NCBI GenBank assembly: GCA_965249025.1
Contig: OZ252215.1
Coordinates: forward strand, 83,209-147,208
DNA: 64,000 nucleotides
Source: Dehalococcoidia bacterium
Lineage (GTDB): Bacteria > Chloroflexota > Dehalococcoidia > Lucifugimonadales > CAYTFF01
Direction of reading: 5' to 3'
In this document: positions 6,994-37,906 of the stretch, piece by piece
Layout: every line of letters starts with the position of its first letter
Numbering within the stretch: position 1 is the first letter of the stretch
The notes under the pieces: model-generated
Told to the model about the DNA's origin: nothing
Databases searched by the model: none
Seen by the model: the letters and a program-made list of their open reading frames with translations, nothing else
Translations under genes and position numbers: made by a program

Positions 6994-9900
6994 TTATACG
7001 GGTTGTTCGTTTTTCCGGCCGCTGGCGGCTAATAGCGCATCCCGTCGCGCTCGCTGCACCTCTCGTGGCGGTGGTGGCGCAACAGTAGGTTTAGGTTTCA
7101 CTTTACGGAAGTTTGGTAGGTTGGCATCCCAGTTGTCCAAGACCTCGCGGGCCTTGGGACTGCCTGTTACCTCCCAATGGCGCTCGATGAGAGCATGTAG
7201 CGTCTCTATGTCTTCGGCTGCCTCCATGGACTCCAAATCAACCATTCCTGGGTTGTAGTTCAGGCCCAGTTGATCGTCGGGGTCGAGAACGAAGGCGATG
7301 CCTCCCGACATACCAGCGCCGAGGTTTCGCCCCGTCGGGCCTAAGACGACGACCACGCCTCCGGTCATGTATTCGCAGCAGTGGTCTCCTGCGCCTTCGA
7401 CCACCGCCCACGCGCCGCTGTTTCGGATGGCCAGACGCTCTCCCGCCTGGCCCGATGCGAAGAGGTAACCACCAGTAGTGCCGTACAGCACGGTGTTGCC
7501 CATGATGACGTTCTTGTGAGGGGGAAACGTAGCGCTTTGTGGCGGTCGTATGATTATCTCCCCGCCATTCATTCCCTTGCCGACGTAGTCATTGGCTTCC
7601 CCTTCAAGGTAAAGCTGCATTCCATTGATGCAGAAGGCGCCAAAGCTTTGTCCTGCGCTGCCTTTGAAACGAAGGCTAATGGAACCATCAGGCAGTCCTT
7701 TGTCGCCGTGTTCGTGGGCGATTGCACCAGCTATGCGTGCCCCGACGGTTCTGTGAACGGTTGATATCTTGCTCTCCATAGTCACAGGCTTTCCACCTTC
7801 GATGGCTGGTCTTACCTTGGGAAGAATGTCGTCATCCAGAGGCGGAGCGTCTCTATCGTTGCGGTCCTGGGCGCAGTACCTCGGACGAGTTGCCTCTGGG
7901 TCTAGCTGTACCAGCAGTTGGCTCAAATCCAGTGTCTTTGCCCTGGGATTAGCGATGTCTTTTCTCTGAGCTAAGAGTTGAGGCCTGCTAATTATGTCCT
8001 TTAGCCTTCGAGCTCCTAAGCTGGCCAGTATACCCCTTAGCTCTTCTGCTATGAAGAAGAAGTACCGTATGACCATCTCTGGTGTGCCGAAGAACTTCTT
8101 TCTGAGGTTTGGGTCCTGGGTAGCGACGCCCACTGGGCAGGTGTTGAGATGGCACTGGCGGGCCATCTGGCAGCCGATGGACACCAGCGCAGAGGTGCCG
8201 AAGGAGTACTCCTCTGCCCCTAACATGGCGGCCACTGCCACGTCCCGGGCCGTGCGTAGACCCCCGTCAGTACGCAGGGTGACCCTACCTCTCAAGTCGT
8301 TCATGACCAGGATCTGCTGGGTCTCGGCCAGACCTAGTTCCCAAGCGCTGCCGGCGTGTTTGATGGATATCAGAGGGGATGCTCCCGTGCCCCCCTCGTG
8401 GCCGCTGATGTGGATAACGTCGGCGTAGCCTTTGGCCACGCCAGCGGCGATAGTCCCTACGCCGGCCTCTGCAACCAGCTTTACGGCCACCTTGGCCCGG
8501 GGATTGACCATCTTTAGATCGTAGATAAGCTGCGCCAGGTCCTCTATGCTGTAGATATCGTGATGCGGAGGCGGAGAGATCAGAGGCACGCCTGGTTGGG
8601 TGTGTCTTATGGCGGCTATGTGTTCCACAACCTTATGGCCAGGCAGTTGTCCACCTTCACCTGGCTTGGATCCCTGGGCCATCTTTATTTCGATCTCGTC
8701 GGCCATAGCCAAATACTCCGGGGTTACGCCAAAGCGGCCGGAGGCTACTTGTTTTATCTTGCTATTGGAGGCCTCTCTGAAGCGACGGGAGTCCTCCCCA
8801 CCTTCTCCGGTGTTACTCTTCCCGCCTATGCGGTTCATGGCTATGCCCAAGACCTCGTGAGCCTCGGGGCTGAGTGCTCCGAGGGACATAGAAGCGGTAT
8901 TGAAGTGCTTGACGATTTCCGAGGCGGGTTCTACCTCATCCAACGGCACAGCCGGGCCCAGAGGCCTGAATTCCAGGAGGTCTCTAATGGCGACTGGCTG
9001 TTCTCCTGTTACCATGTCGCGGAACTGGTTATACAACTCCTGGGTTCCGTCTTCTGCTACGGTCTTGTGGAGCGCTCTTACCATCCGCGGGTTAAAGGCA
9101 TGATGCTCTCCTTGCTTGCGGAACCGATAGTAGCCGTAGTCGTCTAATTTGCCTTTGGGTGGAGGCTCGCCGAAGGCACGTCGGTGGCGCTCCAAGGTCT
9201 CTTGGGCGATCTCCTCTAGTCCGATGCCCTTGATTGAGGAGGGCGTACCATAAAAGGCTAGGTCTACGACCTCGTCACTCAGGCCAATAACCTCGAAGAT
9301 TTGGGCGCCGTGGTAGCTGGATACGGCAGAGATCCCCATCTTGGACATAATCTTGAGGATCTGTTTTTCCAGGGTACCCTTGTAGTTGTGGAGCGCATCC
9401 TCTAGGGGCATGTCCTCTCCGTGCTCTTCTTGTACAACGTCTGTTAGGCAGGCCAAGGCCAGGTAGGGGTTAATGGCGCTTGCGCCGTACCCCAAGAGGG
9501 TGACCATGTGATGCATGTCCCTGGCTTCTCCTGTCTCCGCGATGATGCTGGCCCTCATGCCCTTGCCCTCTCGGATCAGGTGATAATGCACTGCGCCTAC
9601 CGCTAGGAGCATTGGTATAGGGGCGTGCTCTTCATCAACCCCTTTGTCACTCAAGATAATGAGAGACTTCCTTTGGTCGACTGCCTGAGATGCCTCTTCG
9701 CATATTCTATTTAGGGCATCTCTTAAACCCGTTGACCCTTGCTTTACCCCTAAAAGCGTGGGAATGGTAGCGGAAGCGAGGATTGGGTCTGCCATATTTC
9801 TTAGAGCCGACATCTCGTGGTCCAGAAGCACGGGGCTTTGTAGGTAGATGAGGCGCGCGTGTTCCTCTGACTCTTCCAGAAGGCTATGGCGGGGGCCCAG

Positions 9901-11538
9901 GTAGGTGTTCAAAGACATTACCAGATGCTCTCTCAAGGGGTCTATGGCTGGATTGGTGACCTGCGCGAATCTCTGCTTAAAGTGTGAGTATAGAAGCCTA
10001 GGTCTATCTGAGAGAACGGACAGGGGCGTATCGTCGCCCATGGAGCCAACCGGCTCCTTCGACTCGGCTACCATGGGCAGGATTACCAGCTTCATCTCCT
10101 CGGAGGTGTATCCGAAAGCTCGCATGGTTTCCATATCGGGGGTCACTGTAGACAAGTTGCCGTTTACAGATGCGAGGTACTTGTCAAAGTAGAGCGTGCG
10201 CTTCTTGAGCCACTGTCCATAGGGCTTCATGGATGCGAGGCCTTGCTTGATTTCACCGTCTTTCAAGATCCTCTTATGGGTGGTGTCTACGGCTATCATG
10301 TGGCCAGGACCTAGTCGGCCCTTCTCCACAATCTTGGAGCCATCGACGTCTATCATGCCCGCCTCTGACCCCATGATTATGATGTTGTCGTCGGTTACCA
10401 TGTACCGCGCTGGCCTGAGACCGTTGCGGTCTAGGCAAGCGGCGACTATTTCGCCATCGGAAAAGGCCAATGCCGCTGGGCCATCCCAAGGCTCGGTAAG
10501 GCAGGCGTGGTACTCATAGAATTCCCTTAGCTGGGTAGGCATGTTGGGCATGTTCTCCCATGCCTCCGGGACTAGCATTGCCATGGCGTGGAGTAGTCCT
10601 CTGCCAGAGACGGTCAGGACTTCTAGCACGTTGTCCAGGCTGGCGGAGTCACTTCCTCCTGCGGTAATTATGGGAGAGAGCTTGCCTATCTGGTCATTCC
10701 ACATGGACGAATGTAGCTCAGGCTCCCTGGCCTTCATCCAGTTGCGATTGCCCTGAAGGGTGTTTATCTCTCCGTTGTGGGCTAGAAATCGAAAGGGCTG
10801 CGCTAGTGTCCAATTTGGAAGTGTGTTGGTGCTGTAGCGCTGATGAAATATAGCTATTGCCGTCTCGAAATTAGGATCGTTGAGGTCTTGGTAAAAGTTT
10901 CTGAGCTGTGGCGCTGCTACAAGGCCCTTGTAGACTAGGGTATTGTTGGAGAATGAGGGTATGTACAGACCTTGTATGCCGCGCTCTGTTACTCTAGCTT
11001 CGATATCTTTACGAGCTAGATACAATTTGCTCTGGAATTGATCTGGAGACATGCTTTCTGGACGAACCACCAGCACCTGGCGAATGTCTGGCATAGTAGC
11101 TAACGCCTGCTGTCCCAGGGCATGGCGGTCTACGGGCACCCGACGCCAACCCAAGAGTGCGAGTCCATGTTGGTTGATGGACTCCTCTATTATGGATAGA
11201 CATCTATCTAGGACATCGTCTTTGCCACATGGCGGGAAGATCATTCCGATTGCCAGGTCTTTAGGATTGTTTGAAGCGTGGCGGCCCAACCTTTCCATCT
11301 CTTTGCTCATCAGCTTGACAGGAATCTGGGTTAGGACGCCGGCTCCATCGCCGGTCTTGGCATCGGCTGAGACGGCGCCTCGGTGCTCCAGGTTGACCAC
11401 CGATTCTATGGCCATATCCAGGATAGAATGGCTTCGGTGTCCCGATATATCGGCAACGAAGCCTACTCCACAGGCGTCGTGTTCGTATTCTGCTCTATAA
11501 AGGCTTCCCTTGTAAGATGGTTCTCTTGCCATACTCAT
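6994..11538 (-). CDS. gltB: glutamate synthase large subunit (GOGAT, 1514 aa)
   Basis: N-terminal amidotransferase Cys (HDACGVGFVADISG) plus FMN/Fe-S and C-terminal GXGXG domains. No small-subunit gene is adjacent. Confidence 0.95.
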   Translation of the reverse strand: MSMAREPSYKGSLYRAEYEHDACGVGFVADISGHRSHSILDMAIESVVNLEHRGAVSADAKTGDGAGVLTQIPVKLMSKEMERLGRHASNNPKDLAIGMIFPPCGKDDVLDRCLSIIEESINQHGLALLGWRRVPVDRHALGQQALATMPDIRQVLVVRPESMSPDQFQSKLYLARKDIEARVTERGIQGLYIPSFSNNTLVYKGLVAAPQLRNFYQDLNDPNFETAIAIFHQRYSTNTLPNWTLAQPFRFLAHNGEINTLQGNRNWMKAREPELHSSMWNDQIGKLSPIITAGGSDSASLDNVLEVLTVSGRGLLHAMAMLVPEAWENMPNMPTQLREFYEYHACLTEPWDGPAALAFSDGEIVAACLDRNGLRPARYMVTDDNIIIMGSEAGMIDVDGSKIVEKGRLGPGHMIAVDTTHKRILKDGEIKQGLASMKPYGQWLKKRTLYFDKYLASVNGNLSTVTPDMETMRAFGYTSEEMKLVILPMVAESKEPVGSMGDDTPLSVLSDRPRLLYSHFKQRFAQVTNPAIDPLREHLVMSLNTYLGPRHSLLEESEEHARLIYLQSPVLLDHEMSALRNMADPILASATIPTLLGVKQGSTGLRDALNRICEEASQAVDQRKSLIILSDKGVDEEHAPIPMLLAVGAVHYHLIREGKGMRASIIAETGEARDMHHMVTLLGYGASAINPYLALACLTDVVQEEHGEDMPLEDALHNYKGTLEKQILKIMSKMGISAVSSYHGAQIFEVIGLSDEVVDLAFYGTPSSIKGIGLEEIAQETLERHRRAFGEPPPKGKLDDYGYYRFRKQGEHHAFNPRMVRALHKTVAEDGTQELYNQFRDMVTGEQPVAIRDLLEFRPLGPAVPLDEVEPASEIVKHFNTASMSLGALSPEAHEVLGIAMNRIGGKSNTGEGGEDSRRFREASNSKIKQVASGRFGVTPEYLAMADEIEIKMAQGSKPGEGGQLPGHKVVEHIAAIRHTQPGVPLISPPPHHDIYSIEDLAQLIYDLKMVNPRAKVAVKLVAEAGVGTIAAGVAKGYADVIHISGHEGGTGASPLISIKHAGSAWELGLAETQQILVMNDLRGRVTLRTDGGLRTARDVAVAAMLGAEEYSFGTSALVSIGCQMARQCHLNTCPVGVATQDPNLRKKFFGTPEMVIRYFFFIAEELRGILASLGARRLKDIISRPQLLAQRKDIANPRAKTLDLSQLLVQLDPEATRPRYCAQDRNDRDAPPLDDDILPKVRPAIEGGKPVTMESKISTVHRTVGARIAGAIAHEHGDKGLPDGSISLRFKGSAGQSFGAFCINGMQLYLEGEANDYVGKGMNGGEIIIRPPQSATFPPHKNVIMGNTVLYGTTGGYLFASGQAGERLAIRNSGAWAVVEGAGDHCCEYMTGGVVVVLGPTGRNLGAGMSGGIAFVLDPDDQLGLNYNPGMVDLESMEAAEDIETLHALIERHWEVTGSPKAREVLDNWDANLPNFRKVKPKPTVAPPPPREVQRARRDALLAASGRKNEQPV

Positions 11539-11640
11539 ATCCTAAGGATTGTAGTCTTACCACTGTTGCTTGAAGTAGGCTTTCGTAAGGTATGCCTAGA
11601 CTAAGACTAGTGTAGCGTCCTTGAAATACTCTCATAAATT

Positions 11641-11746
11641 GTCATTGCGAGGAGTCCCGACGAGTTGGGACGACAAAGCAATCTGGTGGGGATGGCCCCA
11701 CGCCGCCAGATTGCCACGGCCCTCCTTCATCGGGCCTCGCAATGAC
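11641..11746. repeat. palindromic MITE/REP-like element (GTCATTGCGAGG ... CCTCGCAATGAC family)
   Basis: 12-nt terminal inverted repeats with an internal AAGCAATCTGGTGGGG motif. Half-copies lie at 14734-14780 and 49450-49503. Confidence 0.8.
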
Positions 11747-11797
11747 ATTTGCAGTGAACTTCGAAGACATGACGCTAGGATGTTAGGAGCCAGCTTC

Positions 11798-13138
11798 CTA
11801 AAGAATTGGAAGGTACCGCTTTATTTCATAGTCGGAGACCTGGGAGCGGTACTCGTCCCACTCGATCTTTTTGTTTCGGATAAAGGTCTCAAAGACGTGG
11901 TCTCCCAGGGCTTCTCTCAACACTTGGCTATTCTCCGCCGCCTGGATTGCTTCCCAGAGGCTACCAGGGAGAGTATCGATGTCTCTTTGGGTGCGCTCAT
12001 CATCGCTCATCTCATAGACGTTTGACTCTACGGGGTCTGGGACCTCGTACTCCTTCTGAATTCCTTGGAGGCCGGCGGCTAGCATTACACTAAAGGCCAG
12101 GTAGGGATTACATGCGGGGTCCGGTGACCGGTACTCTATGCGCACAGACTCCTCCTTGCCCCTTCTGTATGCGGGCACACGTATGAGGTCAGACCGGTTG
12201 ATCCTTGCCCATGAGACGTAAGCGGGGGCTTCGAAGCCGGGTACCAGACGCTTGTAGGAGTTTATCCACTGGTTGGTGACTAGGGTTATTTCTCTGGCAT
12301 GGCGCATTAGACCGGCTACGAACAGTCGGCCGACTCCTGACAGATAGTAGGGGTCATTCGCATCAAAGAAGGCGTTTTTGTCGCCCCGGAAGAGAGACAT
12401 ATGAGTATGCATGCCGCTTCCGTTGACGCCGGCAATTGGCTTGGGCATGAAGGTGGCGTACACACCCTGTTTGATCGCTACCTCCTTGACCACCAGGCGA
12501 TATGTCATAACCGTATCGGCCATGGTCAAGGCATCTGTGTATCTAAGGTCAATTTCGTGCTGGCTTTCAGCCACCTCGTGATGGCTGTACTCTACAGGTA
12601 TGCCCAACTCCTCCAGCATCAAGACGGTCTCCCTTCGGAGGTTTGTGACGAGATCCTGGGGGTCCTGATCAAAGTAGCCACCCTTGTCCAGGGTTTGCGT
12701 GCCCTGGGAGTCCTTGAAGTAGAAGTATTCCAGCTCTGGGCCTACATAGAAGACGAAGCCCATGTTGGCGGCCCGTTCTAGGTTACGTCGAAGTATGTAT
12801 CTTGGATCGCCTTCAAAGGGGTTCCTTTCTGGGGTGATTATGTCGCAGAACATTCTGGCGACGGCGTTCTGCTTAGGTCTCCAGGGGAGTATGCGGAAGG
12901 TAGTTGGGTCTGGCAGCACGAACAGGTCGCTTTCATCTATTCGCGCGAATCCCTCAATAGATGAGCCATCAAAGCCCATGCCAGTCCTCAAGGCATACTC
13001 TAGCTCTCCTATGGTTATGGCGAATCCCTTTAGATTGCCGAGGATGTCTGTAAACCAAAGTCGTATGAACCTAACGTCGTTCTCTTTGGCCGTCTTGAGA
13101 ACGTACTCTATGGCTTCGGGTTCTCTCTCCATTTCCAT
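11798..13138 (-). CDS. glnA: glutamine synthetase type I
   Basis: VRFIRLWFTDILGNLKGF ... MFDGSSIEGF-like N-domain; 446 aa, typical of GSI. Confidence 0.95.
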   Translation of the reverse strand: MEMEREPEAIEYVLKTAKENDVRFIRLWFTDILGNLKGFAITIGELEYALRTGMGFDGSSIEGFARIDESDLFVLPDPTTFRILPWRPKQNAVARMFCDIITPERNPFEGDPRYILRRNLERAANMGFVFYVGPELEYFYFKDSQGTQTLDKGGYFDQDPQDLVTNLRRETVLMLEELGIPVEYSHHEVAESQHEIDLRYTDALTMADTVMTYRLVVKEVAIKQGVYATFMPKPIAGVNGSGMHTHMSLFRGDKNAFFDANDPYYLSGVGRLFVAGLMRHAREITLVTNQWINSYKRLVPGFEAPAYVSWARINRSDLIRVPAYRRGKEESVRIEYRSPDPACNPYLAFSVMLAAGLQGIQKEYEVPDPVESNVYEMSDDERTQRDIDTLPGSLWEAIQAAENSQVLREALGDHVFETFIRNKKIEWDEYRSQVSDYEIKRYLPIL

Positions 13139-13323
13139 CGCTTGGCTCCCGGTCTCAACGTAACTTGATAACGGCCTTCGGATTTCTTGGTAAGGGAAAT
13201 ACGGGTCTTATCCGAGAATAAGTTGTGATTTTATTCGCAAATTAAGGTTTTGTAAAGGGGTATGCGCTGCGTCTTGCAAATTGCCACCGTCCCAAACAAT
13301 TATGCCTTTCAAACGATGATATA

Positions 13324-13354
13324 GCGCTCACCGTGGCCTATGTACAGTGAGCGC
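13324..13354 (-). terminator. hairpin downstream of glnII (GCGCTCAC-N15-GTGAGCGC)
   Basis: 8-bp perfect stem about 35 nt after the glnII stop. The U-tract is weak. Confidence 0.3.
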
Positions 13355-13386
13355 CATCTCTAAATGCCTGGTGAATAAATTTTCTG

Positions 13387-14448
13387 CTAGGAAGAAACTC
13401 CGGCCTTGCTCGTGTTAGTAGGAATTCCTGCCAATACGCCATCCCTTTCAAAGGCGCTGCAAACGGTGTCGGTGATGAGACGGGTAACCACATAAGGGTC
13501 CATGTTCGCGTTGGGCCTGCGGTCCTCAATGTAGCCCTTTCCATCGCGCTTCACCTGCCACGGAATTCTGACAGAGGCTCCCCTGTCGGAGACTCCATAC
13601 CTGAACTCCTTGTAGGAGCAGGTCTCATGGAGGCCTGTTAGACGCTCCTCTATGGCGAACCCATAGTTGACGATGTGGAGATCGTGTTTCTTGCTCAAGG
13701 CTTCGGCTGCCTGAATACAGGGTTCGTAGGACTCTCTCATTTCTTTAGTGGAGAAGTTAGTGTGAGCGCCCGCGCCGTTCCAGTCGCCTCTGACAGGTTT
13801 TGGATAAAGGGTAGCGCTAACGTTAAAGTCTTCGGCGATGCGATATAGGAGCCAGCGCGCCATCCATAGCTGGTCGGATACCTCGACAGGACCTACTGGG
13901 CCTATTTGGAACTCCCACTGACCTGGCATTACCTCTGCATTGATGCCAGAGATTCGGATATCTGCGTCGATGCAGGCCTGCATGTGTCTTTCCACGATGT
14001 CTCTTCCAAACACTTCATCGGCGCCGACTCCGCAGTAGTATCCACCCTGTGGTGGAGGGAAACCAGAATCCCCGGGGAAGCCAAGAGGGCGTATCCCCTT
14101 AAAGAAAGTGTACTCCTGTTCAATACCGAACCATGTGTCGTGAGACGCGTATTTCTCAGACGTTTCCACGCATGCGGCGCGAGTGTTGCTTGGATGAGGT
14201 GTCATGTCTATGTTTAGCACTTCGCACAACACCAGCTTATTGTCTTCGCCGCGGATAGGGTCGGGACAGACATACACCGGCTTCAAGACGCAGTCGGACT
14301 GGTCTCCTGGGGCTTGGTTGGTGCTTGAACCGTCGAATGCCCAGATTGGAGGCTCCTCACCCAGTGGCACAATCTTAGTCTTAGCTCTTATCTTTGCCGT
14401 GGGGACAGACCCATCTATCCAGATATACTCTGCCATATAGACGCTCAT
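13387..14448 (-). CDS. glnII: glutamine synthetase type II (eukaryote-like GSII)
   Basis: N-terminus AEYIWIDGSVPTAKIRAKTKI and a 353-aa length are characteristic of GSII. AGGAG lies 6 nt upstream of ATG 14448. Confidence 0.9.
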   Translation of the reverse strand: MSVYMAEYIWIDGSVPTAKIRAKTKIVPLGEEPPIWAFDGSSTNQAPGDQSDCVLKPVYVCPDPIRGEDNKLVLCEVLNIDMTPHPSNTRAACVETSEKYASHDTWFGIEQEYTFFKGIRPLGFPGDSGFPPPQGGYYCGVGADEVFGRDIVERHMQACIDADIRISGINAEVMPGQWEFQIGPVGPVEVSDQLWMARWLLYRIAEDFNVSATLYPKPVRGDWNGAGAHTNFSTKEMRESYEPCIQAAEALSKKHDLHIVNYGFAIEERLTGLHETCSYKEFRYGVSDRGASVRIPWQVKRDGKGYIEDRRPNANMDPYVVTRLITDTVCSAFERDGVLAGIPTNTSKAGVSS

Positions 14449-14505
14449 CGCATACTCCTGTCGATAAATTTAGGTATATTAAACAGCTAGAGATGTAAAT
14501 GATTC

Positions 14506-14598
14506 CTATTTGGACTTCCGCAGACGGCTGGGTAGGACGACCCACATTGCTAAGAGACCGATAAAGGCGACTCCACCTAGAATTGCTTCTAGCCCCAT
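14506..14598 (-). CDS. candidate 30-aa hydrophobic peptide upstream of glnII
   Basis: Encodes MGLEAILGGVAFIGLLAMWVVLPSRLRKSK*. AGGAAGG lies 9 nt upstream of the ATG. It is below the ORF-track length cutoff and its stop is 57 nt before the glnII start. Confidence 0.3.
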   Translation of the reverse strand: MGLEAILGGVAFIGLLAMWVVLPSRLRKSK

Positions 14599-14642
14599 AA
14601 TATTAAGCCTTCCTAGCTGTTATATCGAGTTCTTGTCATCTA

Positions 14643-14699
14643 GTTTAACCGCCTACGTTACAAAAGGTATTGCGTGAATGTTAAATCTTTGTTACAAAA
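14643..14699 (-). promoter_or_regulatory. candidate operator: two copies of TTTTGTAAC-N6/8-TTAA(A)C
   Basis: Gene-strand sequence is TTTTGTAACaaagatTTAAC ...(14 nt)... TTTTGTAACgtaggcggTTAAAC. It lies 45-100 nt upstream of the small ORF and glnII. Half-sites are 11 nt apart in the first unit. Confidence 0.3.
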
Positions 14700-14791
14700 T
14701 TCGCCACACTAGTAGGGACATCTTTCCTACCCCGTCGTCGTTGCGAGCGAGCCAGCGAGCGAAGCAATCTGGTGGGGTGGTTGACTACACT

Positions 14792-14968
14792 TCAGCTCTT
14801 GGAGGTCGGTCCCATATCCTGCTCAGGATAGGCCAGCATGCCGTGCTCCGGCATGTCCAGTCCCTCCATCTCTTCCTCTTGAGAGGCCCTTAGACTGATG
14901 GTCCTTTTTATGAACCAGAAGATGGCCAGTCCAGCGCCTTGGGCCCAGGCTGTAACCGTGACCATGCT
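14792..14968 (-). pseudogene. ammonium transporter (Amt) C-terminal remnant
   Basis: 57 codons, VTVTAWAQGAGLAIFWFIKRTISLRASQEEEMEGLDMPEHGMLAYPE..*, matching the conserved last TM helix plus the GLRvseEEExeGLDxxEHG tail of AmtB. The upstream ~350 aa are absent and the fragment abuts a repeat fragment at 14971-14995. Confidence 0.65.
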
Positions 14969-15248
14969 AAAGCATGGGGCATAGATGCCTCTACCTAATG
15001 GTCTTCAACAAAATAAACTGACGTTTTCTCTGTGTGAAGTAAACCATGTAAGGAAATTCTACGTGGTAAAGGCACAAGGTGTTCTCTCCCACCTGCCCAC
15101 CCAGAAAGGTATCTACTCAAGGGCACATCCCCTGAAATCCCTGCCCCTTCGACTACGCTCAGGGTAAACTCCGAGGGATACCCTCTCTGGACTTTCCCAA
15201 TTTGGCCGTCTGCATTATAAATGTCACAATAAATAGTTTATGACTATC

Positions 15249-15308
15249 AGCATGGGGCATCGATACCTCCGCCTTTAGGGGGAGGTCGAGTAGTCGTATC
15301 GTAAATTG
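15249..15308. repeat. ~60-nt interspersed repeat, copy 1 (inverted copy at 50277-50336)
   Basis: AGCATGGGGCATCGAT.CCTCCGCCTTTAGG.G.GGTCGAGTAG.CGTATCGTAAATTG is about 90% identical to the reverse complement of 50277-50336. A partial copy lies at 14971-14995. Confidence 0.85.
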
Positions 15309-15331
15309 GCGCCTTATTTTCTCAATGACCA

Positions 15332-16009
15332 TTAGGATGGGGTCGTAACAGCGAATCTGTATCCTACGTTCCAGATGGTTTCGATGAAGGAGTGTTCCGT
15401 GTCTTCGATTTTGCTGCGCAAGCGTCGAACGTGAACATCGACGGTGCGGGTGCCGCCGTAGTAGCCATATCCCCACACTTTGCTTAGGATGGTTTCCCTT
15501 GTGTATACCATGCCGGGATGTGAGGCTAGAATTCGCAGAAGCTCGTATTCCTTGAAGGTGAGTATGACCTTCTTTCCCTTCACGGACACTTCGTATTTGT
15601 CCAGGTCAATAACTAGATCGCTCGTCACGATCACGTTGCTGCCCACTGCTCGTCTGGTGCGCCACAGCAACTGGCGAAGCCTGGCCTTAAGCTCTGCTGC
15701 GTCGATGGGCAACGTCACGAAGTCGTCCAGTGCCAACTTAACGTCGAACTTGGCGAGGGATTCATTAGGGATCAGGCCAATTACTGCCAAATCAAGCTTG
15801 TGGCAGGCCTCAACGCACTCCCGTTGGTCTTGTGAAGACATAGAGGTGGTGTCCAGGAGCACGATGTCAGGGGGCATGTTTTGGCTGAGCGAGGCCAACT
15901 CTCTATGGTCATCCAGTACGGTTACTGAAATTCCATCCGCCTGAAGGGAATTGAGGGCTTCTCCCCTCTCGTCGTTCACGTCGGCACCTACTAGCAATAG
16001 CTTGCTCAC
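15332..16009 (-). CDS. OmpR/PhoB-family winged-helix response regulator with an atypical (pseudo-)receiver domain
   Basis: C-terminal LTFKEYELLRILASHPGMVYTRETILSKVWGYGYYGGTRTVDVHVRRLRSKIE. The receiver domain lacks the DD pair (LLVGAD), the conserved T/S (VIGLIP) and the K (VTLP). No histidine kinase gene is adjacent. Confidence 0.85.
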   Translation of the reverse strand: MSKLLLVGADVNDERGEALNSLQADGISVTVLDDHRELASLSQNMPPDIVLLDTTSMSSQDQRECVEACHKLDLAVIGLIPNESLAKFDVKLALDDFVTLPIDAAELKARLRQLLWRTRRAVGSNVIVTSDLVIDLDKYEVSVKGKKVILTFKEYELLRILASHPGMVYTRETILSKVWGYGYYGGTRTVDVHVRRLRSKIEDTEHSFIETIWNVGYRFAVTTPS

Positions 16010-16201
16010 GGTTAGACAACCTTAGCTGTACATATAGTGGCAATCATCTCTGCGCCATTATACAGACATCCAGAGGAATGGGAAAACGCAGAAGCTCTCG
16101 TCTATCGATCTACGAGACTGCCTTGAATTCTGTGTAGTTATACGATCGGGTTAGGGGTGAGAGATCGGATAAATCACTTCAAGGAATCATAGGGTGAAGG
16201 G

Positions 16202-17053
16202 CTAGTCTTTTTCTATGAGCACACCCACAGAATTGCCCCACTCCGTCCAGGAGCCGTCGTAGTTGCGCACCCTCTCGTAGCCCAGGAGATACTTTAGGAC
16301 AAACCAGCTATAGGAGGCCCGTACCCCCAGGCGGCAGTAGGGGATGACCTCCTTGTCGGGCATCACGCCCTTCTCTTCGTACATTCTTCGCAGTTCGTTG
16401 GCGGGCTTGAAAACGCCGCTTTCGTTAGCGCCGTCGTCCCAGGGGATGTGTATGGCGCCTGGAATGCGGCCCTTCCGCTCGATCTCCGGCTGATGGGTGC
16501 CTGGCGCCGAGGTGAGCTCGCCGCGATACTCCTCAAGTGCCCTGGTATCCAGAATGGCCACGTCCGAATTACCCAAGCGATTAGCTATATAGTCTTTGGT
16601 AGCCCTTAGGCTAGAGTCGGGGTTCTTGGCATGATAGGCCTTGGAAGAGGGGTTTGGGATATCTGTAGAGAGGGGGCGATTTTCGGCTACCCACTTCTTC
16701 CGGCCGCCGTTCATTATCCTCGCGTCTCGGTGGCCATAGTGCTTGAGGACCCAGAAGGCCCATGTGGCAGTGCGGTTGTTGCCGTCGCCGTACAAGACTA
16801 TGGTGGTGTCGTTGTCCACGCCTGAATTGTCCAAAAGGCGCTCAATTTGCTCCTTTGTGGGGATGTCGCGCATCACCGGATGCTCCAAGTCGGTGTGGAG
16901 TCCCCAACCTACGGCTCCGGGCACGTGGCCCTGTTTATATGCCGACTCTAGGTCTCCGTTGACCTCTACTATAACCAGGGAGGGGTCTGATAAGCGCTGT
17001 GCCACCCAGTCGGTCTCAACTAATAGCTCTGGATTAGCGTAGTTCTCTGGCAT
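16202..17053 (-). CDS. thiosulfate/3-mercaptopyruvate sulfurtransferase (tandem rhodanese domains)
   Basis: Two rhodanese domains with active-site loop CRLGVRAS; 283 aa. Confidence 0.85.
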   Translation of the reverse strand: MPENYANPELLVETDWVAQRLSDPSLVIVEVNGDLESAYKQGHVPGAVGWGLHTDLEHPVMRDIPTKEQIERLLDNSGVDNDTTIVLYGDGNNRTATWAFWVLKHYGHRDARIMNGGRKKWVAENRPLSTDIPNPSSKAYHAKNPDSSLRATKDYIANRLGNSDVAILDTRALEEYRGELTSAPGTHQPEIERKGRIPGAIHIPWDDGANESGVFKPANELRRMYEEKGVMPDKEVIPYCRLGVRASYSWFVLKYLLGYERVRNYDGSWTEWGNSVGVLIEKD

Positions 17054-17116: not shown

Positions 17117-18406
17117 TCATAAACCTTCTCGGTTCTCCGACATATCCGCCTCGAGCGTTGCTTTCTGGATCTCTTCAGGAGGCTTCACTTTACGGAACAC
17201 CATGTAGAGAGAGATGTCATAAACAATCTTGAGAACTCCAGAGAATACAAAGGGGGCGCTACTGGAGATGGCGTTCCATAAGGCAGTTCCAACAGAGGGC
17301 CCGATGGTCTGGTTGATGCTTCGTACCCCCAGGCGTAAGCTCACCATAGTTACGCGCTCTTCGGGGAGGACAATGGCTAACGTATAAGAGTCCCTGGTAG
17401 GCACATCCATCTGGTTTAAGAGAGATCGAAGTTGCCAGAATATGACTGCCATCCACGCTACGGGAGCGAAGGCTACCGCTATCAACAAAACGCTAGTGGG
17501 AATGTGGGTGAAGACCATTGTCTTTAGAAGGCCTATTCTATTGGCTATCTTGGCGGACAACCACAGTGAGATTACAGCTAGAAGTTGGGCTGTGAAGAAG
17601 ATTAAGGCCAGTCCTCCTAGCTCTATTCCAAACTTAGTAAAGAACCAATATACCACAAGGCCCTGTACGATGAGGCCACTGGCAAACTGGTCAACGCTAA
17701 AGAGGGCGATTAGAGGGAGGATGATTCGCCTAGAGGGGAGCTTCAAAGGGTTTATCCATCGCCGCTCTTCAAAACGACCATCCATAGCGGGTGATAGGGA
17801 CCTATATAGAAGAGAAAGAACAACCATAAGAGCGACAAAGAATAGGAACATGGTTTTAAAGGAGAAGGCTGGGCTTGTGTGAAATACGTCCTGAATTACC
17901 GTTGGAAGCCCTGCGGCCAGGGATCCCAAGGCGACGCCAATGGTAGAGACCATTCGATATATGGCGAAGAGGTCGGTCCGTTTTTGAGGTGGAGCCGTAT
18001 CTGGCAGGCCAGCCTGTTCCAGAGGTTGGATTGGTCCTCCTAGTGAACCGGCGCCGCCGCCACTTAGACCGCCAACGAAGGATATGAGCATTAACGGTAT
18101 CACATCGTCTACAAAGACAAGGGCTGTTCCTGAGATAGCTAGGAGGAGAGTGAATATGGTGAGTAGCTGTCTTCGTCCTACTCTTTCCCCGATGAATCCG
18201 GCCAGGAAGGTAAAGAAAGCAGAACCGGCTGCCCCCGCGCTAAGAAAGAAGCCAATTTGTACGAGGGTAAAGCCGAGATAGTCAAGGTAGATCGGCAGCA
18301 GTAAGGTTAGAGAACCCAGACCTAGGGTTAGCACTCCTCTGGAAAGAATGACGATTTTAGCGTCTCTGCTTATCCAACCAAGGGATGAAACTAAGGGAAA
18401 GTTCAC
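17117..18406 (-). CDS. MFS transporter
   Basis: About 12 predicted hydrophobic segments and the loop motif GERVGRRQ between TM2 and TM3; 429 aa. Confidence 0.8.
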   Translation of the reverse strand: MNFPLVSSLGWISRDAKIVILSRGVLTLGLGSLTLLLPIYLDYLGFTLVQIGFFLSAGAAGSAFFTFLAGFIGERVGRRQLLTIFTLLLAISGTALVFVDDVIPLMLISFVGGLSGGGAGSLGGPIQPLEQAGLPDTAPPQKRTDLFAIYRMVSTIGVALGSLAAGLPTVIQDVFHTSPAFSFKTMFLFFVALMVVLSLLYRSLSPAMDGRFEERRWINPLKLPSRRIILPLIALFSVDQFASGLIVQGLVVYWFFTKFGIELGGLALIFFTAQLLAVISLWLSAKIANRIGLLKTMVFTHIPTSVLLIAVAFAPVAWMAVIFWQLRSLLNQMDVPTRDSYTLAIVLPEERVTMVSLRLGVRSINQTIGPSVGTALWNAISSSAPFVFSGVLKIVYDISLYMVFRKVKPPEEIQKATLEADMSENREGL

Positions 18407-18575
18407 TTAAGCCGTTAGCCCTTCCTACTCCGTGTCGCAACGCGGCCTGCATTATAACACGCTTGGTAGGGTGGTAAGGAGACGAAGCTAACCTGGGGGG
18501 AGCCAAGCATCCAAATTGGCCCCCCCAGGGGTTTCTAATTCGGTGAAGTTCAAATCGATGACAGTGACCGTTAGG

Positions 18576-19541
18576 TTACCACCACAATTTGCCGTCTACC
18601 TCTTCCTTGAGGTCTCCAAAATCTTTGGTCCAAAGACCGGTGCTAAGGTATTTCCAGCCACCGTCCGCTAAGAGGCAGACGATGTTTCCGTTTTTCATTC
18701 GCGTTGCCAGTCTTCTGGCGCAGGCTATCACAGACCCTGAGGAGATGCCAGCAAAGAGACCCTCCTGTTCCATAAGCTCCCTGGTGAAGAAGAAGGCCTC
18801 TCTGCTCTCTATCAGCATCCTAGAATCCAGGACGGATAGGTTCAAAATAGGAGGTATGAACCCCTCTTCCAAGCTCCTTAGGCCCTGAATGGAGTCGTCT
18901 GGGTTGGGGGCAACGGCCACAATCTTGACACTGGGATTATGCTCCTTCAACCGCCGTCCCACCCCCATAAGGGTGCCTCCTGTGCCAAGTCCTGCGACAA
19001 AGACATCCACCTCTGGCAAGTCTCGGATAATCTCTTCTGCCGTTGTCTCGTAGTGGGCCCTGGGATTGGCCTCGTTGCCATACTGGTAGGGCATGAAGTA
19101 TGAGTCGTCCTGGGACGCCATCTCTTGAGCTACAAGGATAGAGCCGTTGGTCCCTCTCGATCCATCTGTAAAATGGATCTCTGCACCGTAGGCTTTGAGG
19201 AGTTGCACTCGCTCCTGGCTTACGTTATCTGGCATAACTACCTTGACCTTATATGCCTTTCGGCGTCCTATCATGGCAAGGGAGATACCGGTGTTGCCGC
19301 TGGTGGGCTCTAAGATAGTCTTGTCTGGCGTGAGAAGCCCTTCTGCTTCGGCCTGTTCAATCATGTACTTGGCTATTCTGTCTTTAACGCTTCCGGTGGG
19401 ATTTGCCCCTTCCAACTTTGCATATATGTTTACCTTTGGATTGGTGCTAGTTCTTTCCAGCTTTACCAAAGGTGTGTTGCCGATGGAGTCCAAGATACTT
19501 TCGTATCTCATATTATTAGGGCTTTTTACGCTGACCACCAT
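18576..19541 (-). CDS. cysM: PLP-dependent cysteine synthase, CysM type (resembles the mycobacterial CysO-dependent O-phosphoserine sulfhydrylase)
   Basis: GSVKDRIA PLP-lysine, EPTSGNTGISLA, YQYGNEANPRAHY, and a C-terminal ADGGWKYLSTG...GKLWW tail, as I recall for M. tuberculosis CysM. A strong AAGGAGG lies 6 nt before ATG 19541. Confidence 0.8.
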   Translation of the reverse strand: MVVSVKSPNNMRYESILDSIGNTPLVKLERTSTNPKVNIYAKLEGANPTGSVKDRIAKYMIEQAEAEGLLTPDKTILEPTSGNTGISLAMIGRRKAYKVKVVMPDNVSQERVQLLKAYGAEIHFTDGSRGTNGSILVAQEMASQDDSYFMPYQYGNEANPRAHYETTAEEIIRDLPEVDVFVAGLGTGGTLMGVGRRLKEHNPSVKIVAVAPNPDDSIQGLRSLEEGFIPPILNLSVLDSRMLIESREAFFFTRELMEQEGLFAGISSGSVIACARRLATRMKNGNIVCLLADGGWKYLSTGLWTKDFGDLKEEVDGKLWW

Positions 19542-19581
19542 AATCCGCCTCCTTGTATGTGAACTTTTCCTCTAAAAGGAG

Positions 19582-20130
19582 TTAGCCTCCTGATTTCAAG
19601 GAAAGGTTATTGCAGCGTTCGCAGGTCTCCTGGGGAATGAGTCCCCATTTCATGAGGTATCCGAATACAAAGCATCCAGCGCAGAATCCTACGAAGGACT
19701 CCAGCGCGGCGAAGATAGCCAGGATCGCGAGTACCCCTTCCGCCGCCACTTGTAAGCCGAAAGGATAGATAAAGATCAGCGCAGTAGTGGAAAAGACAAG
19801 GCCTACAAACTGGGCAAATCGCTTGGGAGGGCCAGCGACGAGTTTGTTTGGATTGCCCAAAAGTGGAACCAGACCCCGGGTAGCCAGCAGCCCCAAGGGG
19901 CTGAGGGTAGGCCCTGTGAGCACGCGCGCCAGGAACCCGTAGGCCAGGAAGAACAACAGCCAGCGGATGTCGAATACGATGATGGTCAGAGCTAATATGA
20001 CCACCATACCTGCTACCATCCTGGCGGCTATCTCGTTGGCTGGATGTGGAAAGCTGAAAACCTCTGAGAGAAAGCTTGGCTTGCTAATAGCTCCTTGGTT
20101 ACTTATTGTTGAGTGGTGCAATTCCTTCAA
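19582..20130 (-). CDS. DUF4395-family membrane protein
   Basis: LFFLAYGFLARVLTGPTLSPLGLLA...PPKRFAQFVGLVFS...FVGFCAGCFVFGYL matches the DUF4395 pattern. The start is uncertain (TTG 20130 or TTG 20121) because of a 9-nt tandem AAGGAATTG duplication at the start. Confidence 0.7.
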   Translation of the reverse strand: MKELHHSTISNQGAISKPSFLSEVFSFPHPANEIAARMVAGMVVILALTIIVFDIRWLLFFLAYGFLARVLTGPTLSPLGLLATRGLVPLLGNPNKLVAGPPKRFAQFVGLVFSTTALIFIYPFGLQVAAEGVLAILAIFAALESFVGFCAGCFVFGYLMKWGLIPQETCERCNNLSLKSGG

Positions 20131-20162
20131 TTCCTTTCTACTTATTCTGATGGTTTCCGGGC

Positions 20163-20199
20163 ATAAAAAGAGCCCTCGTTAGATTTCAACGAGGGCTCT
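20163..20199 (-). terminator. intrinsic terminator inside the 5' leader of DUF4395-cysM (attenuator stem 3:4)
   Basis: Minus strand reads AGAGCCCTCGTT-gaaatct-AACGAGGGCTCT followed by TTTTTAT. This is a 12-bp perfect stem only about 35 nt upstream of the DUF4395 start codon. Confidence 0.7.
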
Positions 20200-20229
20200 A
20201 GACGTCTGCTGTCTATCTTAGCTACGGCA

Positions 20230-20271
20230 CTAGGCGATAGCCCCTCCTATGTGGGGCATACAAGCGCACAT
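20230..20271 (-). CDS. candidate 13-codon leader peptide MCACMPHIGGAIA (Cys codons at positions 2 and 4)
   Basis: ATG TGC GCT TGT ATG CCC CAC ATA GGA GGG GCT ATC GCC TAG overlaps alternative-pairing segments 1 (GCCCC) and 2 (GAGGGGCT). No clear SD precedes it. Confidence 0.35.
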   Translation of the reverse strand: MCACMPHIGGAIA

Positions 20272-20304
20272 TGCTGCGAAGTTGATTTTTATCATTGTAT
20301 TGTA

Positions 20305-20333
20305 AGTATACACTATAGACATTTAAGTGTCAC
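20305..20333 (-). promoter_or_regulatory. candidate sigma70-type promoter for the Cys leader (GTGACA-N17-TATACT)
   Basis: On the minus strand the -35 GTGACA is at 20333-20328 and the -10 TATACT at 20310-20305, with a 17-nt spacer in an AT-rich context about 35 nt upstream of the leader ATG. Confidence 0.35.
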
Positions 20334-20374
20334 TATATCAGTTTGATGATGGGAATCTTATTAAGATTCTAGCG

Positions 20375-20472
20375 TGTCATTCTGAGGAGCGTGGCGACGA
20401 AGAATCCTTGGTACGGTCGCAAGAAAGGCAGACCAAGGATTCTTCCCCAGACAAGTCGGGCTCAGAATGACA
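20375..20472. repeat. palindromic MITE/REP-like element (TGTCATTCTGAG ... CTCAGAATGACA family)
   Basis: Terminal inverted repeats plus an internal inverted GAAGAATCCTTGG/CCAAGGATTCTTC pair. Related copies lie at 25361-25461 and 37907-38034, with a half-copy at 37846-37884. Confidence 0.85.
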
Positions 20473-20620
20473 GGAACCAGAGGATGTCAACTGTAGACAG
20501 CTGACTTCGTCTCGCCGTAGGGCGGACTCCGTCCCCGAGCCGTCGCCAGAGTGGCTTTGGCACGTCGGTGACCGAAGGCGGAGCTACTCGTTCTTCTACT
20601 GGGATAGTTGCCTAAGAATA

Positions 20621-21445: not shown

Positions 21446-21594
21446 GAGCACTCCCTGTTTTTACTGTTTATTCATTTGTTTAGGTGCAATAAGTGCAGAT
21501 GTGGTGCATTATATCAAAAAACCGTTGAGAGAAGGCGGCTTGAAACGGTGTTGGCCGAGTTTCAAAGAATGGTTCACGGAAGGCGAGGATATGG

Positions 21595-22032
21595 CTAGAT
21601 CTGGTACATGCCTCCGCTTACTGTGTGGGCCTGGCGCTGCGCCAACTCGCCGATGGAGGTGAAGTTCAGAACGTTTTGCACCACCTGGTCCACCGACTGC
21701 CATACATCGCGCTGAGCACAGATGCTGTACTGGATGCACTCTGTAGGCTCATCTATACAGTTTAGGGGAGCCGAGGTACCGTCTAAGGTCTCCATTACCA
21801 TGCCTAAGCTTATTTCTTGGGGTGACTTGGCCAGCATATGGCCTCCCTGGGGTCCCCTTCGGCTTCTAATGAGGCCGAATTTGTTCAGGATGGTTAGAAG
21901 CTGGTCAAGGTAAGGCTCAGGTATGCTCTGGCGGTTTGCAATCTCAGCGGTGGGAACAGGCCCAGAGCCAGTTTGCTGGGCCAAATCGATTAGGGCACGA
22001 ACCCCATAGTCCACCTTCATTGGTATCCGCAT
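21595..22032 (-). CDS. Rrf2-family transcriptional regulator
   Basis: N-terminus MKVDYGVRALIDLAQ...PVPTAEIANRQSIPEPYLDQLLTILNKFGLIRSRRGPQGG; 145 aa. Confidence 0.85.
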   Translation of the reverse strand: MRIPMKVDYGVRALIDLAQQTGSGPVPTAEIANRQSIPEPYLDQLLTILNKFGLIRSRRGPQGGHMLAKSPQEISLGMVMETLDGTSAPLNCIDEPTECIQYSICAQRDVWQSVDQVVQNVLNFTSIGELAQRQAHTVSGGMYQI

Positions 22033-37696: not shown

Positions 37697-37906
37697 CTCT
37701 CCTCTCTTTCCTGACTTTGCGCTAAAAGTCTTGTTTCGTCCCATACTATGATAACAGAACTATGATAACAGACTTTGATTATCCCACCACGTCTTTCTCG
37801 ACTTGTCTGGGTCGGATTTTATCGTTCCTCTTTCAAAAACAGTGTGGCGACAGATTCCTCGTCGCTGCGCTCCTCGGAATGACAGCAAATAAGAGCGTGT
37901 CGTTTC

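Follow-up and report, generated by a model that had tools for sequence, protein, structure and literature searches.

The 64,000-nucleotide (nt) stretch of DNA analysed here, hereafter the window, derives from a Dehalococcoidia bacterium (contig OZ252215.1, positions 83,209 to 147,208). On its reverse strand, it carries a gene for an orphan response regulator of the OmpR/PhoB family, which lies next to genes of ammonium assimilation and is followed by an array of short direct repeats upstream of the first of them. Taken together, the properties of this locus make it likely that the gene encodes a GlnR-type nitrogen regulator, which has no partner kinase and activates ammonium-assimilation genes via arrays of GTAAC-like sites. 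The features central to this reading are as follows (- denotes the reverse strand):

15332..16009 (-): regulator gene, GlnR-like orphan of the OmpR/PhoB family, 225 residues, GTG start, stop codon included (from the list of open reading frames)
15644..16009 (-): pseudo-receiver domain, residues 1-122 (from alignments, AlphaFold2 secondary structure and residue frequencies in the family)
15851..15853 (-): codon of Asp53, the equivalent of the phospho-acceptor Asp in the motif VLLDTT (aligned to the phospho-Asp of RegX3, MtrA and PhoB)
15335..15634 (-): winged-helix DNA-binding domain, residues 126-225 (aligned with HMMER to 8hig and 8hml), with the recognition helix TRTVDVHVRRLRSKI
14643..14695 (-): GlnR-box-like array of 4-5 direct repeats (sequence reading and cross-genome matrix)
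14619..14624 (-): candidate -10 element TATAAC, 18 nt downstream of the last box (sequence reading)
16057..16084 (-): sigma-70-like promoter candidate of the regulator gene, TTCCCA-16-TATAAT (consensus scan, 10/12 matches)

The database entry for the regulator (P0001) begins at an alternative GTG 10 codons downstream and comprises 215 residues. The 225-residue form is preferable, because it is matched by the N-termini of the two closest homologs (MSKVLLVG and MSKILLVG) and by the gene call in a sister contig (L083), and because residues 2-7 are required for strand beta1 of the receiver fold in an AlphaFold2 model. This model, with a mean predicted local distance difference test score of 88.1, displays an intact (beta-alpha)5 receiver fold and a winged helix. 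In Pfam searches, the protein matched Trans_reg_C with 92.8 bits, in agreement with a preliminary description of the sequence that had proposed a normal OmpR/PhoB-type output domain. The best model for the N-terminal half was GlnR_1st (PF21695), with 25.7 bits at a cut-off of 27, and its score for Response_reg amounted to 16 bits, compared with a cut-off of 30.2. The NCBIfam equivalog models all scored far below their cut-offs (YycF, 123 vs 340; PhoB, 103 vs 296).

Alignments with canonical regulators reveal that the receiver domain has lost most of its phosphorylation pocket. Residues were assigned by means of HMMER alignments to RegX3, MtrA and YycF and a MAFFT alignment that included Escherichia coli PhoB. 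The acidic pair E9/D10 of PhoB corresponds to G8/A9 of the regulator (motif LLVGAD), T83/A84 to I80/P81 (VIGLIP) and K105/P106 to L100/P101 (VTLP), and D53 of PhoB is matched by D53 (VLLDTT). The preliminary description had interpreted these same motifs as a loss of the acidic DD, the beta4 Thr/Ser and the beta5 Lys, with the phospho-acceptor Asp alone remaining; the comparison with canonical PhoB that it had suggested as a check did not restore the DD/T/K residues and yields the same assignment throughout. Most likely, the N-terminal domain is no longer able to catalyse Asp phosphorylation, and the regulator is predicted to act independently of this modification.

Residue frequencies in 120 homologs show how far this degeneration extends. 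The Asp53 position is occupied by D in 111 of them and by Y, E, N, A, P or G in some close homologs; the Thr position (I80) holds V in 105 and T in a single case, and the Lys position (L100) has K in 13. D96 is kept in 118 homologs, F97 and P101 in 119 each and E106 and R110 in all 120. D96, E106 and R110 align with D101, E111 and R115 of PhoB, and we take their equivalents, on the basis of the PhoB and ArcA dimer structures, to lie on the alpha4-beta5-alpha5 dimer face. Across the 120 sequences, the DNA-binding domain is almost invariant and the receiver very variable. Within the Chloroflexota-like group, the receivers share an average of 22% identity, compared with 53% among actinobacterial GlnR receivers, and GlnR_1st matches 57 of the 120 family members at E ≤ 0.01, compared with 6 for Response_reg.

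One further residue, Cys69 (codon 15803-15805, reverse strand), situated at the end of alpha3, is kept in 116 of the 120 homologs despite its hypervariable surroundings. Cys65 is found in 66 homologs, giving rise to a CxxxC pair with Cys69 in many members of the family. Cys69 could have a structural or redox role or serve as a modification site.

The absence of an adjacent histidine kinase gene, also recorded in the preliminary description, extends to the whole window: no open reading frame of at least 150 codons in the 64 kb matched HisKA or HATPase_c in Pfam searches, and a tblastn search with the PhoR kinase core found no match in the same region. An analogous search detected no kinase gene adjoining the regulator homolog in any of the Chloroflexota-like loci examined, the nearest kinase-like match being a weak HATPase 6 kb away in one of them (L003). 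The canonical outgroup regulator genes found in the same actinobacterial loci are each paired with a kinase gene.

The similarity of the protein to GlnR is most evident in its DNA-binding half. Its top sequence match in the PDB was the GlnR structure of S. erythraea (8hig; E 8e-34, 120 bits), and matches were also obtained with the GlnR activation complex of M. tuberculosis (8hih; E 1.4e-30) and another GlnR structure (8hml; E 3.5e-28). In this search, the GlnR structures scored 120 and 110 bits, compared with 94 for RegX3 and 87 for MtrA, and the DNA-binding domain taken separately reached 101.7 bits with 8hml and at most 84 with other proteins. In the HMMER alignment, the segment TRTVDVHVRRLR is identical between the regulator and 8hml. 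The base-contacting residues of S. erythraea GlnR, R186, V190, R193 and R194 (PMC10235972), correspond to R188, V192, R195 and R196 of the regulator, which lie in the recognition helix and are invariant in the 120 homologs.

For a broader comparison, we used an alignment of 90 sequences, comprising the window protein, 28 Chloroflexota-like sequences, 47 actinobacterial GlnR-like sequences and 14 canonical regulators; the GlnR reference sequences were drawn from PDB alignments, with an S. coelicolor GlnR sequence as the query. The DNA-binding domains of the Chloroflexota-like and actinobacterial GlnR groups are 55% identical, and either group shares about 42% identity with the canonical regulators. 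Receiver identity was about 19-25% in every between-group comparison. It showed no preference for GlnR and was discarded as support for a specific relationship, so that the case for GlnR rests on the DNA-binding domain, the cis-element, the genomic context and the hidden Markov model scores. A fold search was likewise abandoned as a discriminator, with the AlphaFold2 model matching MtrA, PhoP, GlnR and PrrA about equally well. In a neighbour-joining tree, the Chloroflexota-like family and actinobacterial GlnR formed a joint clade with a bootstrap value of 78, within which the Chloroflexota-like group was not resolved. The regulator is probably a distant ortholog of GlnR, and we are fairly confident that it works like GlnR.

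The array in front of the first nitrogen gene provides the second line of evidence. Read on the reverse strand, it consists of GTAAC (14695-14691), TTAAC (14684-14680) and GCAAT (14673-14669), each separated by 6 nt from the next, followed after 7 nt by GTAAC (14661-14657) and then by TAAAC (14647-14643). It precedes a short open reading frame (sORF) of 30 codons, a type II-like glutamine synthetase gene (GSII), glnA and gltB. Arrays between the regulator gene and the first nitrogen gene also occur in eight comparison loci (L002, L013, L019, L021, L023, L026, L027 and L083), with a site spacing of approximately 11 bp and the common pattern GTAAC-n6-[G/T]TAAC-n6-G.AA[C/T]-n6-G.AAC. Those in L002, L013 and L021 are similar and lie before glutamine synthetase genes; the window array and the remaining ones read as follows:

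Window: GTAACaaagatTTAACattcacGCAATaccttttGTAAC...TAAAC, upstream of sORF-GSII
L026: GTAACatgattGTAACatggagGAAACacggctGAAAC, upstream of sORF-amtB
L019: GTAACatagatTTAACatgtctGTAATatgttgGTAAC, upstream of amtB
L023: GTAACatattcGTAACacaggcGTAATaccccgTAAAC, upstream of amtB
L027: GTAACacaatcTTAACgctgctGTAACaggcccGCAAC, upstream of amtB
L083: GTAACaatttgTTAACactcctGAAACacctccGAAAC, upstream of amtB

In L083, there is also an array orthologous to that of the window (3471-3508), which has a regular fourth site, GAAAC. The published GlnR box, which these arrays match, has the structure a1-n6-b1-n6-a2-n6-b2, with the sites gTnAc and GaAAC, and usually two boxes are present, giving four sites; the consensus obtained from GlnR crystals is GTAAC, and that of M. 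smegmatis is t/gTAAC-n6-Gc/aAAC.

The significance of the array was assessed with a 38-nt four-site matrix built from seven other genomes, with the window excluded. Its best match in the window, at 22.6 bits, was the array itself (14658-14695, reverse strand), followed by a runner-up at 12.2 bits. In 200 windows randomised with a second-order Markov model, the maximum averaged 12.6 +/- 2.3 bits, and only one of them reached 22.6 bits. Across 1.5 Mb of loci, scores of at least 30 bits were confined to the array promoters and one site on which the matrix had not been trained, located approximately 1.7 kb upstream of an amtB match in L016 (14828-14865). A weaker new match lies upstream of glnA in L029. 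In two loci, arrays precede the regulator gene itself (L026, 8307-8344, 24.8 bits; L034, 9554-9591, 15.5 bits), which suggests autoregulation of the gene there.

A reciprocal, motif-first scan of metagenomes returned many trivial 11-bp microsatellites, from which 24 non-repetitive arrays were retained. An amtB or glutamine synthetase gene starts within 300 nt downstream on the same strand in 7 of these, 8 have a regulator homolog on the contig and 12 show one or the other feature, far more than the roughly 0.1% of genes expected by chance. These counts are conservative, since an over-strict tandem-repeat filter placed genuine arrays (L094, L144, L151 and L203) in the repeat class. A simpler 16-mer, GTAAC-n6-GTAAC with up to 2 mismatches, was rejected as a search motif, because it is not enriched in the window (20 found vs 32 expected).

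In eight loci, the distance from the end of the array to the start codon is 48-62 nt. A promoter scan of the window identified no consensus -35 element at the array promoter, and the combination of the array with the TATAAC element in the absence of a good -35 fits activator-dependent transcription. Of the three intergenic regions that the preliminary description had put forward as candidate binding regions, the one at 14449-14720 indeed contains the array, and those at 11539-11640 and 13139-13386 contain no significant one. Based on its sequence, its conservation and its position, the GTAAC-like array is most likely the binding site of the regulator.

The genes and further elements surrounding the array and the regulator gene are the following:

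14506..14598 (-): sORF, 30 residues, hydrophobic (MGLEAILGGVAFIGLLAMWVVLPSRLRKSK), with the ribosome-binding site AGGAAGG; first open reading frame downstream of the array
13387..14448 (-): GSII, type II-like glutamine synthetase, 353 residues (Pfam Gln-synt_N and Gln-synt_C); predicted target
11798..13138 (-): glnA, type I glutamine synthetase, 446 residues (Pfam); possible target
13256-13228 (-): sigma-70-like promoter of glnA, TTTACA-17-TAAAAT (consensus promoter scan)
6994..11538 (-): gltB, glutamate synthase large subunit, 1514 residues (translation of the open reading frame); final gene in the cluster
14764..14968 (-): amtB relic, comprising approximately 200 nt from the 3' end of the deleted gene (tblastn and blastn)
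16202..17053 (-): two-domain rhodanese gene, directly upstream of the regulator gene (Pfam and locus comparison)

The sORF has no Pfam match. Its ortholog in L083 (3568-3660), with 2 residue differences, was called as a gene, and L026 has a homolog (9354-9479) that separates the array from amtB, the family ranging from 30 to 42 residues in size. The product could be a small membrane protein that is co-regulated with ammonium assimilation. The order of the GSII gene and its neighbours is the same in L013 and L083, and the L083 ortholog of gltB contains the Pfam domains GATase_2, Glu_syn_central, Glu_synthase and GXGXG. It is uncertain whether the control exerted by the array extends to glnA and gltB, since glnA has a promoter of its own without a significant array and the GSII gene is followed by a hairpin. 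An Rfam scan of positions 11000-17000 at E ≤ 0.1 returned no RNA family, which argues against a glutamine riboswitch or similar element in this region.

Comparison with L083, which is approximately 94% identical to the window at the nucleotide level, points to a rearrangement of the cluster. The gene order in L083 is regulator, array, amtB, second array, 30-codon sORF, GSII, glnA and gltB, with amtB split into two gene calls (155 and 253 residues) and preceded by a four-site array. In the window, the stretch corresponding to L083 1540-3132 (approximately 1.6 kb, containing the amtB boxes and most of amtB) was not found, and only the 3' end of amtB is left; it was detected by tblastn with AmtB residues 369-405 (43-50% identity) and is 87.6% identical to the 3' end of L083 amtB (3133-3341) in a blastn comparison. 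We conclude from this that amtB and its boxes were deleted in the window lineage. No other amtB or glnK gene is present in the 64 kb. The statement in the preliminary description that the regulator gene sits beside the known targets of GlnR thus holds for GSII, glnA and gltB; amtB is represented by the relic, and no gltD gene is adjacent. The L083 regulator (P0121) was also considered as a possible identical copy of the window protein, but 17 differences in 225 residues rule this out.

The end of the regulator gene is closely followed by a dispersed repeat (15245-15330, reverse strand), which measures approximately 80 nt and contains hairpins (cctaaaggcggagg; atgccccatgct/agcatgggg). A second copy is located 35 kb away (50262-50345, forward strand). 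A 26-nt partial copy (14971-14996), located 278 nt from the first one, adjoins the amtB deletion. The repeat resembles repetitive extragenic palindromic elements or miniature inverted-repeat transposable elements and may have been involved in the deletion.

The host is a Dehalococcoidia-class member of the Chloroflexota and not an actinobacterium, given the origin of the closest matches. The best regulator homologs (45-64% identity) and the PyrG homologs (72-85% identity) come, where named, from metagenome-assembled genomes (MAGs) of Chloroflexota, Dehalococcoidia and SAR202, and the regulator is one member of a large family in this phylum. The best-matching genomic loci belong to Dehalococcoidia MAGs and share neighbouring genes with the window; in L002, for example, the Rrf2, ThiF, CysK and GlnA proteins are 61-78% identical to their counterparts in the window. 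The G+C content of the window is approximately 52%. The next best genomic matches after the Chloroflexota-like loci are actinobacterial glnR loci. Several gene orders recur: regulator, amtB, glnK and glnA in L019, L023 and L027; regulator, GSII, glnA and gltB in the window and L013; and regulator, glutamine synthetase-like gene, glnA and gltB in L002 and L088. In other loci, the regulator homolog has no nitrogen gene in its vicinity. Regulator homologs were also found in MAGs labelled as Armatimonadota (L018, OY760504.1), Omnitrophota (L016, L024 and L028) and Latescibacterota (L022), some of them adjoining glnA or amtB-glnK-glnA; either the family is distributed more widely, or these contigs were mis-binned.

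On its other side, the regulator gene adjoins the rhodanese gene, a homolog of which also neighbours the regulator gene in L012 (9085-9927). In about half of the Actinomycetota loci (about 25, e.g. L025, L031-L033, L037 and L042), the glnR homolog is preceded, at a distance of up to approximately 5 kb, by a rhodanese gene that lies on the opposite strand and whose product is 40-47% identical. Similarly, cysA2 (Rv0815c) lies near glnR (Rv0818) in M. tuberculosis. The proximity of the two genes may represent an ancient shared synteny. Further upstream, a sulfur-related cluster (17117-22032, reverse strand) encodes a major facilitator superfamily transporter, a CysK-like pyridoxal phosphate enzyme, a DUF4395 protein, a ThiF/MoeB-like E1 enzyme and an Rrf2 regulator. 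In L002, L011 and L014, the genes likewise occur in the order Rrf2-ThiF-CysK-regulator, and L017 shares the part ThiF-CysK-regulator. Elsewhere in the window, the open reading frames at 38141-41434 (1097 residues) and 36695-37744 (349 residues), both on the reverse strand, have no Pfam match at E ≤ 1e-5.

These observations can be combined into a model of how the regulator may operate. The pseudo-receiver would serve as a constitutive dimerisation module, acting through the alpha4-beta5-alpha5 face, as suggested by the conservation of D96, E106 and R110, which are invariant or nearly so in the family. Two dimers would place four winged helices head-to-tail on the GTAAC-like pentamers at 14643-14695 (reverse strand), such that the last box takes the -35 position of a promoter without a good -35 element. 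Given this position, the bound regulator is proposed to recruit RNA polymerase, like the GlnR tetramer in the M. tuberculosis activation complex, and thereby activate the sORF-GSII operon, possibly with read-through to glnA and gltB. In the ancestral locus, the regulator gene would have been immediately followed by amtB(-glnK), activated by a second array, a unit that has been lost here; this type of arrangement is retained in the sister strain and many relatives. For S. coelicolor GlnR, Ser/Thr phosphorylation and acetylation have been reported. It is tempting to speculate that the nitrogen signal is conveyed by one of these modifications, by changes in regulator abundance or via Cys69.

Reviews describe OmpR-type GlnR as a system of actinobacterial nitrogen control, and a full-text literature search retrieved no paper linking GlnR to Chloroflexi/Chloroflexota, Dehalococcoidia, SAR202 or Chloroflexus. 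The closest known counterparts, the actinobacterial GlnR proteins, include S. coelicolor SCO4159, M. tuberculosis Rv0818 and the GlnR proteins of S. erythraea and A. mediterranei, together with the structures 8HIH, 8HIG, 8HML, 4O1H and 4O1I. The regulator shares with them the two-domain architecture, the lack of an adjacent kinase gene, the loss of DD/T/K with retention of the Asp, the layout of four GTAAC/GAAAC pentamers at 6-nt gaps, the set of targets (amtB, glnK, glnA and type II glutamine synthetase) and a nearby rhodanese gene. It differs from them in its Chloroflexota host, the lack of a charge triad in the receiver, the retention of the Pro and the aromatic residue, the near-invariant Cys69, the hypervariable receiver and the frequent position of the regulator gene directly beside its presumed targets. 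In most of the actinobacterial loci fetched, no glnA, amtB or glnK gene was found within 10 kb.

A kinase-less combination of an OmpR-type winged helix with a noncatalytic receiver-like domain is also known from Chlamydia ChxR, Helicobacter HP1043, Streptococcus RitR and Campylobacter CosR, proteins of a type that dimerises constitutively on or near the alpha4-beta5-alpha5 face (PMC12632262). HP1043, RitR and CosR were among the structural matches of the AlphaFold2 model. In terms of sequence, they are much more distant (HP1043, 2hqr, E 1e-11; RitR, approximately 1e-10) than GlnR (8e-34); the regulons and DNA motifs of these four regulators are unrelated, and none of them has been linked to nitrogen genes. 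With canonical OmpR/PhoB-type regulators (E. coli PhoB; M. tuberculosis RegX3, MtrA, PhoP and PrrA; B. subtilis WalR/YycF), the protein has in common the overall fold (with E values of about 1e-17 to 1e-15 in the fold search), the residues of the recognition helix, the equivalents of D101/E111/R115 and, by analogy, head-to-tail binding to 11-bp direct repeats. Unlike the window protein, they possess all five active-site residues (E/D-D, D, T, K), and their genes are paired with a kinase gene.

Several observations weigh against an assignment to GlnR or limit what the evidence for it can prove. The receiver half is 24% identical to the GlnR receiver and 25% identical to canonical receivers, its GlnR_1st score falls 1.3 bits short of the Pfam cut-off, and a PDB search with this half alone returned neither 4o1h nor 4o1i at E ≤ 10. 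In GlnR, Asp50 is the focus of a charge network that also includes Thr9 and, in the beta3-alpha3 loop, Arg52 (Lin et al., 2014, as summarised in PMC10704036). This triad is absent from the regulator, which has T55 at the Arg52 position and G8 at the Thr9 position; in the family, the Arg52 position holds S, A, G or T and in none of the 120 homologs Arg, and the G8 position is variable. Actinobacterial GlnR loci are in turn characterised by conserved D-A-R and LLLLT motifs, and GlnR has lost both the proline equivalent to P101 and the aromatic residue equivalent to F97 (the Tyr102 position in GlnR), which the regulator family keeps. By these residues, the receiver is a pseudo-receiver that has degenerated in a different manner from that of GlnR. 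The phylogeny is only suggestive, because the outgroup was small and the candidate loci had been pre-selected by a peptide pattern typical of the GlnR-like DNA-binding domain. The conserved base-contacting residues do not prove specificity, since PhoB, which reads a different box, has them as well. At the DNA level, the fourth and fifth boxes in the window deviate from the 11-bp register by 1 to 3 nt, and the matrix scan of the window found no significant array before glnA, gltB or the promoter of the regulator gene itself, the best sub-threshold match near these promoters (11601-11638, opposite strand) scoring 10.05 bits, within random expectation. Among the 28 loci L002-L029, most of which are Chloroflexota-like, 18 have no match to glnA, GSII, gltB, amtB or glnK in the flank, and most of these also have no array in the flank that was fetched. 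Finally, with Asp53 retained in 92% of the homologs, a distant kinase or acetyl phosphate might still phosphorylate it weakly. Since the host belongs to another phylum, the triad is lacking and the GlnR_1st score lies just under the cut-off, we do not file the protein as a strict member of the actinobacterial GlnR group. The architecture of actinobacterial GlnR attributed to it in the preliminary description is therefore borne out as regards orphan status, degenerate pocket and closeness to GlnR structures, and does not extend to the host or to the triad of the receiver.

Among the alternative explanations, the one suggested by Asp53 is that the protein is an ordinary response regulator, which depends on phosphorylation and has its cognate kinase gene at another place in the genome; phosphorylation of Asp53 by this kinase or acetyl phosphate would then trigger dimerisation and binding. 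Such a view is compatible with the widespread retention of this residue, with the intact receiver fold in the AlphaFold2 model and with the matches of the receiver half alone to canonical receivers, such as YycF at E 2e-7; in addition, the kinase search covered 64 kb of a genome of approximately 3.3 Mb, and pseudo-receivers with substitutions at DD, T or K can in some cases still undergo phosphotransfer (PMC12632262). We nevertheless regard it as unlikely, because both Mg-binding acids, the Thr and the Lys are missing together, the catalytic pocket residues are not conserved across the 120 homologs, the Response_reg score is about half the cut-off and the Chloroflexota-like loci examined show no kinase gene adjoining the regulator gene. 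Moreover, the retained Asp of GlnR serves dimer stability rather than phosphorylation (PMC10704036), and in some close homologs of the regulator the Asp position carries other residues. The protein could also descend from an MtrA-, RegX3- or WalR-like ancestor, with a pseudo-receiver that degenerated independently and a regulon that converged on nitrogen genes, the resemblance of the boxes then reflecting the general reading of 11-bp repeats by this family. This scenario would account for a receiver that is equally far from GlnR and canonical receivers (approximately 24-26% identity), for the retention of P101 and F97, the absence of the GlnR DAR and LLLLT motifs and the narrowly failed GlnR_1st cut-off, and it is in keeping with the joint clade having a bootstrap value of only 78 with few outgroups and an unresolved Chloroflexota-like group and with a fold search that does not separate GlnR from other family members. 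It is at odds with a DNA-binding domain that is nearest to GlnR in both identity (55% vs 42%) and score (101.7 bits with 8hml vs ≤84), with half-site pentamers (GTAAC/GAAAC), an n6 spacing and a four-site layout that are those of GlnR boxes, and with targets (amtB, glnK, glnA and glnII-type glutamine synthetase) that are those of GlnR. The two-domain rhodanese neighbour, which the window lineage shares with L012 and about half of the Actinomycetota loci, together with actinobacterial glnR loci being the next best genomic matches beyond the Chloroflexota-like ones, also argues for common descent, and we accord an independent origin only a small probability. Even then, the protein would still work like GlnR.

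A third possibility is that the regulator acts mainly as a repressor, or controls phosphate or sulfur metabolism, with its position beside nitrogen genes being incidental and the arrays bound by a different factor. GlnR is known from the literature to be able to repress, depending on the position of the box, genes related to sulfur (rhodanese, CysK-like, ThiF/MoeB and Rrf2) lie upstream, and PhoP is reported to compete for GlnR-regulated promoters in Streptomyces (PMC3561978). Yet many genomes have the array in the intergenic region that immediately follows the 3' end of the regulator gene, homologs and arrays co-occur in the motif-first scan, and the genes downstream of the arrays are always amtB, glnK or glutamine synthetase genes. 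The arrays are located upstream of, and not over, the candidate -10 element and the start codon, at a promoter without a -35 element, and there is no array before the sulfur genes, a one-mismatch 16-mer at 18564-18579 being within chance expectation. This explanation thus appears highly improbable, and a GlnR-type activator of ammonium assimilation remains the reading that we prefer.

In a wider and considerably more tentative perspective, the OmpR-type GlnR regulon might be ancient and common to Actinomycetota and Chloroflexota, perhaps also Armatimonadota, and might control nitrogen assimilation in marine and subsurface Dehalococcoidia and SAR202-type bacteria. The conserved set, comprising the D96/E106/R110 dimer face, Asp53, Cys69 and the DNA-binding domain, could then conceivably constitute a minimal functional core, with the remainder of the receiver evolving freely, and Cys69 or Asp53 might possibly be the entry site for a nitrogen or redox signal.

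If our interpretation is correct, it provides a testable regulon model, consisting of a regulator, a box and a set of targets, for nitrogen assimilation in Dehalococcoidia-class bacteria, which are abundant in oceans, sediments and aquifers and mostly uncultured. It would also open proteins that are labelled just as 'response regulator transcription factor' to proper annotation. Moreover, the family would represent a natural mutagenesis experiment, in which Asp53, Cys69 and the alpha4-beta5-alpha5 residues are constrained and the remainder of the receiver can change, narrowing the search for the site at which GlnR-type regulators receive their long-sought input signal. The deletion of amtB, finally, exemplifies the remodelling of a regulon between near-identical strains.

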